In this document: positions 18,001-19,807 of the stretch, piece by piece
Layout of the letters: each line of letters begins with the position of its first letter
Position numbering within the stretch: the stretch's first letter is position 1
DNA from: a virus
Virus genome (UHGV): UHGV-1783465
Direction: 5' to 3' (one strand)
Length of the DNA: 19,807 nt
Program-made: the position numbers

Positions 18001-19807
18001 AATACACCGCCGTCAGCCGCATGGCCCGCTGGCTGCTGATCCGCTTTCCGGTATAGGTGTCGTATGACAACCCCAGCTCTTCCGCAAGCATCCCGGGCGT
18101 TGTGACGGGGGTGTTATTTTTACGTTGAAAAAGCCCCTGGAAAAACATTACTCACCTCCGGAGGCGACCCGGTGACCACGATCGAGATAACGCGCAACCA
18201 GCCACGACCAGCACAGACACAGCACCCCGGCAACAACAAAACCCGCCGGGGGATAAATCAGCCAGGCGCCATACGCCAGCAAAAGCACACCCAGCACGCC
18301 CACCAGAGGCGTGAGAATTATCAGAAACATAATGACCTCGGTTAAAGCGAGCGAATACCAACGCTGACCAGATGTTCAGACAGATCCGGCTCCGGTTCAC
18401 CGCCATTGACCAGCATCCGGCTCATTGCTGTAAACATCGCAACAGGGCCGTCGATTTTGGCTTCCGGCGTGGATTTATTCGGGAAGATATTGTCGTTTTT
18501 GTCCGGTTTTACCGTAACGTTAGACATCATCCAGTTCATGACCGGATGATTGCTGTGGTGGAAACGCCCGGCATAGACCAGTGATTCCGTTTCCTTCATG
18601 GCCTCTGACAGATTGCGGACCGTCTGCGGAACTTCCACCAGCGGTATACCTTCTTCAGTCAGCGCCAGACTGAACTGCATTGCGCTCCACGGGTCAAATC
18701 CCAGTTCCCTCAGGTTTTCACCGCCAATCCATTCCAGTAGGTCACTTTTGATCTGAGCATGATCGATAACATCACCATCCGTCAGGATGAGCTTACCCAT
18801 CTCCGCCCACTTCCGGTAAAGTTCTGCCTGCTGCCGTGAGCATCGTTCCAGCCGTCCTTCCGGAAGCCAGAATTTAAAATCGGCATGAACATGCCCGTTA
18901 TCCGTTCGCCAGAGTTTTGCCGCCGCACAGATATCAATCTTATGAGCAAGGTCGACGCCGACCCACATGGGATATGTTTTCAGCTCATGCTGTGGAGCAA
19001 TGTATTCGCACTTCTCCCACTTAATCATGTCCATCCAGGCAGACTCTGCTGTTACCCACACATTCATGTGTTTGGTAAAAAAATTCACCCGCGCAGAGAC
19101 CTGTTCTTTCGCTTTTTTCGCCAGGCGACGCAGATCATCCCAGCGTTTACAGATGCCCAGGCCGGGATTCGCTTTCTGCCAGACCGTTTCATCAAACGGA
19201 TCATCTCCCTCATCGAGGGTGTAAATAATCGCAAAGTAGGAGTCGTCTTTTACCGCGCCCTCCACGTCGCTGTTATAGCCTCGCAATACCTTGATGGCGT
19301 AATCGCGTTGCTCGTAACAAATCCCTTCCTTGTTAAAGCCAGCCGTGGTGATACCAAATAACAGGGACTGCAGACGGGCACCGGTTGCCGTTTCCAGAAC
19401 GTCCCACACGTCGCGGGTTTTATGTGCATGCAGCTCATCAATAATGGCGCAGTGGATGTTCAGACCATCCAGGTTGTTTGCATCCGAGGAAAGCGGTTCA
19501 AATTTTGATGCGCTCTGCTCCTGGTAAATCGCCAGCTTGTTGAAATCAAACAACCGCCCGAGTGTCGATCGGGCTTTTCTGACCATATTTTTGGCGTCTT
19601 CAAACACGATTCTGGCCTGGTCACGCGTGGTTGCGGCTGAATACACCTCAGCCCCGCCTTCACCATCTGCCCCCGTCATATACAGACCGATACCTGATGA
19701 CAGGGTTGATTTTGCGTTTTTACGGGCGACTTCGTTGTACGCTGTCCGGAAACGGCGCACCATCACCGGGCGTCCGCTGCCATCGCTGCGCATGACAACT
19801 TCCCCGG

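Follow-up and report, generated by a model that had tools for sequence, protein, structure and literature searches.

The question raised by this locus is why a small membrane protein is encoded between the genes for terminase and portal in a phage head module, and whether it was inserted there or belongs to the module. The sequence-only reading had called a membrane protein rare at this position and had proposed a moron-type gene, such as a superinfection-exclusion or membrane-targeting factor. The window analyzed here is the whole 19,807-nt stretch of virus genome UHGV-1783465, in which the module and its junctions are laid out as follows.

18342..19793, minus strand: terminase large subunit (TerL), C-terminal 483 aa (Pfam TerL_ATPase 1.6e-27, TerL_nuclease 7e-53)
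18331..18341, minus strand: 11-nt spacer from the TerL stop to the start of the small ORF, CCGAGGTCATT, carrying the Shine-Dalgarno motif (SD) GAGG; read from the sequence
18148..18330, minus strand: gene for a small, predicted inner-membrane protein of the YmfR family (PHROG 502), 60 aa, stop codon included
18152..18159, minus strand: SD of the portal gene, GGAGGTGA, inside codons 58-60 (GGA GGT GAG) of the small ORF; read from the sequence
16907..18148, minus strand: HK97-family portal protein, 413 aa (Pfam Phage_portal 1.6e-108; phrog_12)
16279..16965, minus strand: HK97-family prohead protease, longest ORF (Pfam Peptidase_S78 1.3e-32; the RefSeq start lies 36 nt later)
15039..16265, minus strand: HK97-fold major capsid protein (Pfam Phage_capsid 4.8e-81)

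The N-terminus of TerL lies beyond the end of the window (the RefSeq copy is 1758 nt). The TerL stop TAA at 18344-18342 is followed on the minus strand by the small ORF, which reads from an ATG at 18330-18328 to a TAA at 18150-18148, the last A of which is shared with the portal ATG (TAATG, 18148). With the spacer upstream and this 1-nt overlap downstream, the ORF is packed between the TerL stop and the portal start as had been described, and the description of a two-transmembrane (two-TM) ORF co-expressed with the late operon, in which it lies directly upstream of the portal gene, also holds. The good SD ascribed to it stands in part: SDs are found on both sides of the ORF, but its own, the 4-base GAGG at 18339-18336, 5 nt ahead of the ATG, is moderate and not strong. 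GGx C-termini recur among the homologues, and the portal SD embedded in the last codons accounts for this recurrent GG(E/K/D) ending. An RNA hairpin hiding the portal SD was considered and rejected, as junction folds were no more stable than those of shuffled sequences (z +1.04 and -0.21). The small two-TM gene that separates terminase from portal is genuine and more than a chance ORF, since its reading frame is kept in hundreds of homologues and its dN/dS is below 1.

The small protein matches the phrog_502 profile over residues 1-54 (E 6.8e-26) and is 77% identical over 60/60 residues to YmfR (b1150, 60 aa) of the e14 prophage of E. coli K-12, whose gene is flanked by a TerL remnant and a portal remnant, the same position as in the window. 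Judged by these comparisons, the ORF is an orthologue of e14 ymfR and a member of PHROG 502. The gene is thus already known, being catalogued as YmfR/PHROG 502, and is an ordinary component of its module; its homology is essentially to a common protein of the phage packaging module. The two proteins have the same length and differ in the allele of the C-terminal tail (e14 tail …DRTQSSVGGGK), which tracks the portal allele. Deletion of ymfR in K-12 gave no phenotype, as expected for a defective prophage (PMC9145139).

A first search returned 127 homologues and a profile search 455 clusters at 50% identity. The distant homologues span Proteobacteria, Firmicutes and Actinobacteria, and phrog_502 was also matched by 63/63 distant members. 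About a quarter of the complete E. coli genomes (1383/5426) carry the gene. No Pfam, NCBIfam or PADLOC family was assigned to the small ORF; Pfam at E up to 1 gave only sub-threshold generic membrane matches, and no Pfam family was found for the 63 distant members. Among the matches listed (26 to 122 aa), none was a hairpin fused to portal or TerL. Members in phiP27, SfII, ST64B and phiKO2 (gp3) are annotated as ‘putative integral membrane protein’, and PHROG 502 is annotated as ‘membrane protein’ and placed by PHROGs in the category ‘moron, auxiliary metabolic gene and host takeover’. Annotation pipelines are inconsistent on the family, which appears as ‘membrane protein’, ‘moron’, ‘head-tail joining protein W’ or ‘hypothetical’, and a literature search for YmfR, phiKO2 gp3, ST64B Sb3 and PHROG 502 found no functional study or experiment.

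Two TM helices had been claimed for the ORF, and the topology predictions agree with this. Hydropathy (Kyte-Doolittle, 19-residue window) peaks at 2.72 (residues 1-19) and 1.92 (residues 28-46) with the turn YPPAG between, and the AlphaFold2 model is a helical hairpin (H2-25 and H27-57, mean pLDDT 72). The protein, whose length lies within the ~50-90 aa taken as typical of the family hairpin, can be divided into four predicted parts.

18256..18327, minus strand: TM helix 1, residues 2-25, Gly-rich (hydropathy, AlphaFold2, column conservation)
18241..18255, minus strand: periplasmic turn YPPAG, residues 26-30, the family signature together with W23 (column conservation)
18193..18240, minus strand: TM helix 2, residues 31-46 (hydropathy, AlphaFold2, column conservation)
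18151..18192, minus strand: cytoplasmic C-terminal tail, residues 47-60, starting at the conserved basic R47 and otherwise variable, with a mosaic breakpoint at its start

Across 131 family members, K+R residues are fewest in the turn, with a mean of 0.19 per protein, against means of 1.73 and 2.36 for the N-terminal and C-terminal segments. Such a distribution points to an N-in/C-in topology, which implies that both ends of the hairpin would be cytoplasmic and the short uncharged turn W-x-x-Y-P-P-A-G-F periplasmic. G35 is invariant, G14 is found in 128/131 and G21 in 129/131 members. In the turn, Y26 is kept in 95, P28 in 115, A29 in 104 and G30 in 115 of the 131 members, and charged residues are nearly absent; W23 and R/K47 are likewise kept, in clusters that share ~30-40% identity. 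Conservation among these members centres on the predicted membrane-embedded hairpin and periplasmic turn and not on the cytoplasmic parts, which are very short and variable, some members stopping 2-5 residues past helix 2. Natural versions with tandem double hairpins were also found (P0146, P0170, P0239). A Foldseek comparison of the hairpin model with the PDB gave nothing below E 5, unsurprisingly for a bare helical hairpin, and a PDB sequence search with two family profiles gave no significant match (best, the glycophorin A TM helix, E 0.25). The lack of a matching PDB chain indicates that the small protein is absent from solved phage structures.

The hairpin has a dN/dS of 0.25-0.29, compared with 0.44-0.63 for the C-terminal tail, and thus appears to be under purifying selection. 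For the whole ORF the value is 0.39-0.45, several-fold above that of the portal (0.08-0.13). In a sliding comparison, a mosaic breakpoint fell within the ORF near codon 46/47: diversity at third codon positions climbs at codon 47, from 0.087 to 0.26, and in the E. coli set the diversity of the tail equals the level of the portal. RNA-level constraint, considered as a reason for the low synonymous diversity in the hairpin codons, was rejected because TerL is equally low in diversity and the breakpoint lies at ~codon 47.

The order TerL, small gene, portal was found in 84/84 related phage and IMG/VR loci, and also in phiKO2, PY54, YeP1 and Marinobacter AS1. Scanning genomes with a profile built from a 13-sequence subset of the family gave 52 distant loci from Alpha-, Beta- and Gammaproteobacteria, Ruminococcaceae/Oscillospiraceae, Streptomyces, Actinomadura and Solirubrobacteraceae. 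At 48 of these 52, the portal start overlaps the stop of the small gene or lies at most 3 nt away (overlap of 1 nt at 38 loci, 4 nt at 5 and 23 nt at 3; gap of 2-3 nt at 2). Prophages of at least three bacterial phyla carry the YmfR/PHROG 502 gene directly before an HK97-type portal, and the claim that a membrane protein is rare in this position is wrong for the module type with a YmfR-family gene before the portal. The small gene is a resident of a head module composed of HNH, P27-type TerS, TerL and HK97-type portal, not an insert.

Within this module, comparison of loci indicates that the linkage of the small gene is with the portal, not with TerL. When TerL was swapped for one only 37-39% identical, the small protein was still 65-83% and the portal 77-89% identical. 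At a Reyranella locus, two reverse-strand cargo genes part TerL from the small gene, and the overlap with the portal ATG is kept; at a single other locus a methylase gene lies between the small gene and the portal. The gene occurs with tail modules of both kinds, contractile in the prophage of the window and siphovirus in phiKO2 and PY54, so that any role would be linked to the head or the portal. It is not universal with this portal type, which is found without it in HK97, Streptococcus Javan499, Burkholderia vB_E175, Moraxella Mcat32, Paracoccus Shpa and an Oscillospiraceae phage, and in a rough NJ tree the partner-less portals interleave with the partner-bearing ones. The portal N-terminal motif MxGLFG was tried as a marker of partner-bearing portals and rejected, since N-termini of similar sequence occur in the partner-less portals of Javan499, Shpa and the Oscillospiraceae phage.

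Morons are inserts found sporadically, each with a promoter and a terminator of its own and often with a deviant base composition. A scan of 1.3 kb found two 9-of-12 promoter-like and three terminator-like sites, against shuffle means of 0.8 and 1.1; these matches are at chance level, and one terminator-like site within the small ORF is the palindrome that holds the portal SD. The GC content of the ORF (0.58-0.59) resembles that of the adjacent 5' part of the portal gene (0.56-0.59), and T-richness, expected from hydrophobic codons, is the one outlier in its composition. Sporadic presence was not seen among close collinear relatives, as all 84 loci have the gene, which is absent only in distant portal lineages. 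With this constant presence, a position kept across phyla, chance-level signals and neighbor-like GC, the moron-type proposal was not borne out, and neither was the reading as an add-on for superinfection exclusion or membrane targeting. We are highly confident that the ORF is YmfR/PHROG 502 and a resident module gene rather than a moron.

As to function, the explanation we favor, with a probability of roughly 40%, is that the YmfR-family hairpin is a late, portal-coupled inner-membrane factor. Ribosomes that end the small protein would re-initiate on the portal, so that both come from one mRNA in a linked ratio, and because the N-terminal helix should insert co-translationally, this re-initiation and the synthesis of the portal would take place at the inner membrane. 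There the small protein could act as a membrane-side helper that tethers the late mRNA or the portal, either nascent or as a ring. It would be an accessory and not an essential factor, since HK97 and other phages have related portals that function in its absence.

A specific role in handling the portal or initiating the prohead, as with T4 gp40, is proposed tentatively by analogy. In phage T4, prohead assembly starts from a membrane-bound, chaperone-dependent (gp40) gp20 portal initiator (PMC9958956), to which the small protein would be analogous. Among functional models for a portal-linked inner-membrane factor, the gp40/gp20 pair comes closest, and likeness to it suggests, at most, what YmfR-type proteins may do in assembly. 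The T4 portal is of a different sequence family from the HK97-type portal of the window. We know of no family link between T4 gp40 and YmfR-type proteins, and T4 genes 40 and 20 are not neighbors. Against a portal role stands the location of the conserved residues in the membrane and the periplasmic turn: the soluble portal could be reached solely by the cytoplasmic parts, and as these are short and variable, specific portal binding is not obvious. The conserved position could also be plain inheritance of a syntenic block. If the small protein is a portal helper, a membrane step would be added to the textbook HK97-type assembly pathway, and a conserved but inconsistently labelled gene would be accounted for. 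Rather unlikely, in our estimate, is a further step in which hairpins made about one-for-one with portal subunits through the stop/start overlap form a small membrane-embedded oligomer, perhaps a ring to match the dodecameric portal, that anchors or nucleates the portal at the inner membrane. In that case membrane-initiated prohead assembly, so far known from T4, would be widespread in HK97-type phages of Gram-negative and Gram-positive hosts.

The same pattern of conservation, with the kept residues in the hairpin and the periplasmic turn and not in the cytoplasmic parts, would also suit a host-directed late membrane effector that binds or blocks a host inner-membrane protein or a DNA-entry route, for example by superinfection exclusion like T4 Imm or HK97 gp15, and that is merely carried along in the head operon at a site of low expression. 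The PHROGs category and the many related portals that dispense with the gene are consistent with this, and the gene would then be a very widespread late effector. We nevertheless find it rather unlikely. HK97 gp15 and T4 Imm are likewise small phage-encoded inner-membrane proteins, but proteins of this type are sporadic and independently expressed, the HK97 example being active in the lysogen, whereas the small gene is constant in its module, lacks signals of its own beyond chance, has the composition of its flanks and lies in the late operon. It is never sporadic in close relatives, its pre-portal position with the start/stop overlap is kept across phyla, and PADLOC defence models gave no match. 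Furthermore, e14 ymfR is induced with the rest of e14 only under SOS-inducing conditions (PMC10012262), and it would therefore not protect a lysogen.

A holin-like or lysis-timing protein, which would oligomerize late through its Gly-rich two-TM hairpin and alter permeability or modulate the true holin, is quite unlikely. Class II holins and pinholins are small, two-TM and Gly-rich, and the small protein shares with phage 21 S68 a length of ~60-70 aa, two TM helices with Gly-rich faces (here helix 1) and late expression; the tandem double hairpins of P0146, P0170 and P0239 suggest in addition that the hairpins act as oligomers. Unlike S68, however, the small gene does not lie beside an endolysin, which was a neighbor in none of the loci examined, the gene staying with the portal instead. 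Its product has a short and weakly charged C-terminal tail, and no holin family was matched in Pfam at E up to 1 or in NCBIfam. The prophage also has a separate lysis cassette, annotated in the identical RefSeq prophage as two holin-type genes and an M15 peptidase, which lies transcriptionally upstream of TerL at a distance of ~1.5-2.8 kb, past TerS and the HNH gene.

The junction itself raises a further possibility, that the ORF acts mainly in cis, as a translated leader that sets portal translation by coupling and the embedded SD, and maybe as a DNA linker for recombination between TerL and portal, with little role for the peptide. The portal SD in the last codons, the conserved start/stop overlap, the mosaic breakpoint within the ORF and an overall dN/dS several-fold above that of the portal are all in keeping with it. 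We consider it very unlikely, since G35, G14, G21 and the WxxYPPAGF motif are kept across three phyla where the DNA is not, a leader needs no two hydrophobic helices, and the dN/dS of the hairpin is well below 1. One more reading makes the small protein a minor component of the virion or an ejected protein, which would be packaged close to the portal and enter the inner membrane of the next host at DNA delivery. It would fit the tight portal linkage and the occurrence with both contractile and siphovirus tails, but is extremely improbable, as a nearly all-TM protein of 60 aa should enter the membrane of the producing cell and would be difficult to package into a capsid, the literature search found no virion proteomics that reports it, and no PDB chain matched.

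One of the labels carried by the family points to a look-alike. Lambda gpW is a positional analogue, encoded between terminase A and portal B and of similar size (about 68 aa). Identity with gpW, which is a soluble protein, was rejected, as the small ORF encodes two hydrophobic helices and gave no gpW match in Pfam at E up to 1. The label ‘head-tail joining protein W’, given by automated annotation to homologues in ON470580, ON470603, ON470584 and PQ793804, looks like a misannotation.

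The sequence-only reading described an ORF with two transmembrane helices packed tightly between the terminase large subunit (TerL) and portal genes at 18148-18330, and frame, junctions and hydropathy all bore this out. The features are as follows:

18330 to 18148, minus strand: small ORF of 60 codons, ATG at 18330, TAA at 18150-18148
18342, minus strand: end of the TerL frame (Pfam TerL_ATPase and TerL_nuclease)
18148: portal ATG, sharing its A with the small-ORF TAA (TAATG); Pfam Phage_portal, 1.6e-108

The TerL stop is followed by an 11-nt spacer, CCGAGGTCATT, with a short Shine-Dalgarno (SD) sequence, GAGG, 5 nt before the small-ORF ATG. 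The SD of the portal is formed by codons 58-60 of the small ORF itself (GGA GGT GAG). RNA folds at the junctions at both ends of the small ORF were not more stable than shuffled controls. TerL is cut off by the end of the window (19793-19807 and beyond); the identical RefSeq gene is 1758 nt, and about 100 N-terminal residues are missing here. On its 3' side, the portal gene shares 59 nt (16907-16965) with the longest prohead-protease ORF, and the RefSeq protease start, 36 nt further downstream, reduces this overlap to 23 nt.

The small ORF matched PHROG 502 (E 6.8e-26), which is labelled 'membrane protein' in the category 'moron, auxiliary metabolic gene and host takeover', and no family was found for it in Pfam, NCBIfam or PADLOC. 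With blastn, the gene was detected in 1383 of 5426 complete E. coli genomes, and K-12 derivatives label the match ymfR. In the e14 prophage of strain DH1, ymfR is located between a TerL remnant and a portal remnant, its end coordinate being the start of the latter, and YmfR is 77% identical to the small protein over all 60 residues. Homologues are named 'putative integral membrane protein' (phiP27, SfII), Sb3 (ST64B) and gp3 (phiKO2). The gene is thus already known and catalogued (YmfR, PHROG 502) but uncharacterised. It is also present, unannotated, between TerL and portal in PY54 (NC_005069.1, 2310-2444) and SfIV (NC_022749.1, 2304-2483). Several homologues are labelled 'head-tail joining protein W' (ON470580.1, ON470603.1, ON470584.1, PQ793804.1). 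The small protein is hydrophobic and gave no match to gpW, so the label, apparently given by position only, looks like a propagating misannotation. A copy 75% identical to the enterobacterial protein was also met in the 1764-bp record OR844959.1 ('Enterococcus phage Efm 3-10'), which is probably mislabelled or a contaminant fragment.

Conservation and synteny in relatives had been proposed as a check, and the gene proved constant among close relatives: the order TerL, small gene, portal was kept in four phage genomes (phiKO2, PY54, YeP1 and Marinobacter AS1) and 80 IMG/VR contigs. When 1.84 billion cluster representatives were searched with a profile, 455 clusters were returned at E <= 0.001, and nearly all of the 150 listed were 45-90 aa long. 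All distant members tested (63/63) matched phrog_502. Scanning a distant sub-alignment against one genome per species gave 52 loci, which include Bradyrhizobium, Reyranella, Rhizobium, Azospirillum, Xanthobacter, Roseateles, Halomonas, Halopseudomonas, Pseudaeromonas, Serratia, Yersinia and Gilliamella, as well as Ruminococcaceae and Oscillospiraceae MAGs and Streptomyces and Actinomadura isolates. The small gene was followed by an HK97-type portal in 49 of these loci, and in 48 of the 52 the portal start overlapped the small-gene stop or lay within 3 nt of it.

Junctions between small gene and portal in the distant loci
1-nt overlap (TGATG / TAATG): 38 loci
4-nt overlap (ATGA / GTGA): 5 loci
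23-nt overlap: 3 loci
2-3 nt gap: 2 loci

Among the exceptions, a methylase gene (L124) or an extra 74-aa ORF (L126) separates the small gene from the portal, and one locus (L097) has no recognisable portal, the small gene being followed by a prohead protease gene. At the Reyranella locus L106 (NZ_JBFWZI010000193.1, small gene at 1054-1257), neither portal nor TerL was detected by tblastn within 3.9 kb downstream, which may reflect masking, truncation or rearrangement; even so, coding sequence like a portal N-terminus (TGATGCCAGGACTGTTCGGG…) follows the small gene there, and the junction sequence resembles those of its relatives L103 and L104.

Related portals also occur with nothing between TerL and portal. 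In HK97, the TerL end and portal start share coordinate 2056, and the same arrangement without the gene was seen in Streptococcus phage Javan499, Burkholderia phage vB_E175, Moraxella phage Mcat32, Paracoccus phage Shpa and an Oscillospiraceae phage; the family HMM had no match at any of these six loci. Vibrio phage K263 carries a distant family member (E 2.4e-5 in the same small HMM search). A related portal (E <= 1e-20) was found in approximately 1473 phage records and the small protein, by single-sequence search, in 40. In a rough, un-bootstrapped neighbour-joining tree of 53 portals, partner-less portals were interspersed with partner-bearing ones at three or more positions, indicating that the small gene is old in this portal family and has been repeatedly lost or gained. 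Its pattern of occurrence is that of an accessory rather than of an essential component.

Several observations indicate which neighbour the gene travels with. In E. coli-type loci with a swapped TerL (37-39% identical), the small protein retained 65-83% identity and the portal 77-89%. In a Reyranella MAG (L101), two reverse-strand cargo genes, one with a Fic motif (HPFQDGNGRLSR) and one resembling a universal stress protein by eye, lie between TerL and the small gene (1845-3898), and the overlap with the portal ATG is kept despite this insertion. The insertion site was therefore the TerL/small-gene junction and not the small-gene/portal junction; TerL is displaced likewise in other Reyranella loci. 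Third-position diversity among 38 distinct E. coli-type sequences was 0.08-0.13 in TerL and, TerL-like, 0.087 in codons 1-46, which encode the hairpin described below, rising to 0.26 in the tail codons 47-60 and mostly 0.23-0.32 in the first 750 nt of the portal. This jump at codon 47 indicates a mosaic (recombination) junction inside the small ORF (18151-18240, codons 31-60, plus flanks), so that the conserved hairpin-coding DNA can fall on either side of an exchange. The tail alleles …GHRVASGGE and …TQSSVGGGK accompany different portal alleles. The wider pattern is one of strict coupling to HK97-type portals in at least three phyla, patchy loss and an in-ORF mosaic junction. No discussion of this pattern was found in the literature searched, and it poses a modest, directly testable question.

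The small protein has two hydrophobic stretches (Kyte-Doolittle 19-residue maxima 2.72 and 1.92) with YPPAG between them and a short basic tail after them. The AlphaFold2 model, made from a 13-sequence alignment, is a hairpin of two helices (residues 2-25 and 27-57; mean pLDDT 72). Among 131 family representatives, G35 was invariant and G21 (129) and G14 (128) nearly so, and W23 (103), Y26 (95), P28 (115), A29 (104), G30 (115) and R/K47 (96) were strongly conserved. The mean number of basic residues was 1.73 ahead of helix 1 and 2.36 behind helix 2, against 0.19 in the turn; by the positive-inside rule, the predicted topology has both termini in the cytoplasm and the YPPAG turn in the periplasm. 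The profile-search family shares the core motif (S/A)YGAW(L/M)(I/V)Y(P/x)PAG(F/Y)I, and non-enterobacterial members carry a basic N-terminal extension of 10-30 residues ending in a conserved Asp. Three homologues (P0146, 122 aa; P0170, 102 aa; P0239, 114 aa) have two matched stretches each and are natural tandem double hairpins with four predicted transmembrane helices, hinting that hairpins may act together as dimers or higher oligomers. In enterobacterial members, the portal SD embedded at the C-terminal end offers the simplest explanation for the recurrent GG(E/K/D) there.

dN/dS (pooled or median Nei-Gojobori)
Whole small ORF: 0.39-0.45
Hairpin, residues 1-46: 0.25-0.29
Tail, residues 47-60: 0.44-0.63
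Portal: 0.08-0.13

The gene encodes a conserved hairpin of the inner membrane, and a stop/start overlap and an embedded SD link its frame to the start of the portal. Stop/start overlaps of this kind support translational coupling, and hydrophobic N-terminal helices are inserted co-translationally. Ribosomes fresh from the membrane-inserted hairpin would then translate the portal, the mRNA would be held at the membrane meanwhile, and the amount of portal would be tied in ratio to the hairpin. Based on coupling and co-translational insertion, we favour a membrane-located role for the small protein, in handling the portal or initiating the prohead. A documented precedent is found in T4, where the portal initiator is membrane-bound and dependent on the viral chaperone gp40 (PMC9958956). 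The main weakness of this reading is that the conserved residues lie in the bilayer and the periplasmic turn, whereas the segments in the cytoplasm are short and vary between members, so that direct binding of the portal is far from assured. Credible rivals are an activity of the hairpin on the host membrane and a role in the timing of lysis. Amino-acid conservation across phyla makes it less likely that the ORF acts mostly in cis, as a leader and recombination linker. The moron-type gene suggested by the sequence-only reading, for example for superinfection exclusion, found no support: promoter- and terminator-like matches around the ORF were at chance level, its GC resembles that of the adjacent portal 5' region (T-richness alone stands out, as expected for hydrophobic codons), and it is constantly present among close relatives. 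In K-12, the ymfR transcript rose with other e14 genes under SOS-inducing treatment (log2 fold change 4.52; PMC10012262), in keeping with a late operon that is expressed once the prophage is induced and not in the lysogen. Deletion of K-12 ymfR gave no phenotype (PMC9145139), but little can be learnt from this in a defective prophage such as e14.

From TerL to portal, the 3 kb of sequence match E. coli chromosome NZ_CM128605 at 100% identity; there they are part of a prophage adjoining a tRNA-Ser gene and hyaABC, and the small ORF is annotated as 'hypothetical protein' (WP_000478605.1). In the direction of transcription, lambdoid early genes are followed by a lysis cassette (two holin-type genes and an M15 peptidase), HNH endonuclease, P27-family TerS, TerL, the small ORF, portal, HK97-type protease and capsid, and a Mu-like contractile tail; the prophage is of the phiP27 / SfI / SfII / SfIV / ST64B type. 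In NZ_CM128605.1, the tRNA-Ser gene beside hyaABC and the HNH endonuclease just upstream of TerS were located at 3537-3624 and 23930-24280, the latter arrangement being that of an HNH-terminase-portal module. Three tRNA genes (Arg, Ile, Gly) and a hokD toxin gene are found at the early/late junction of this prophage.
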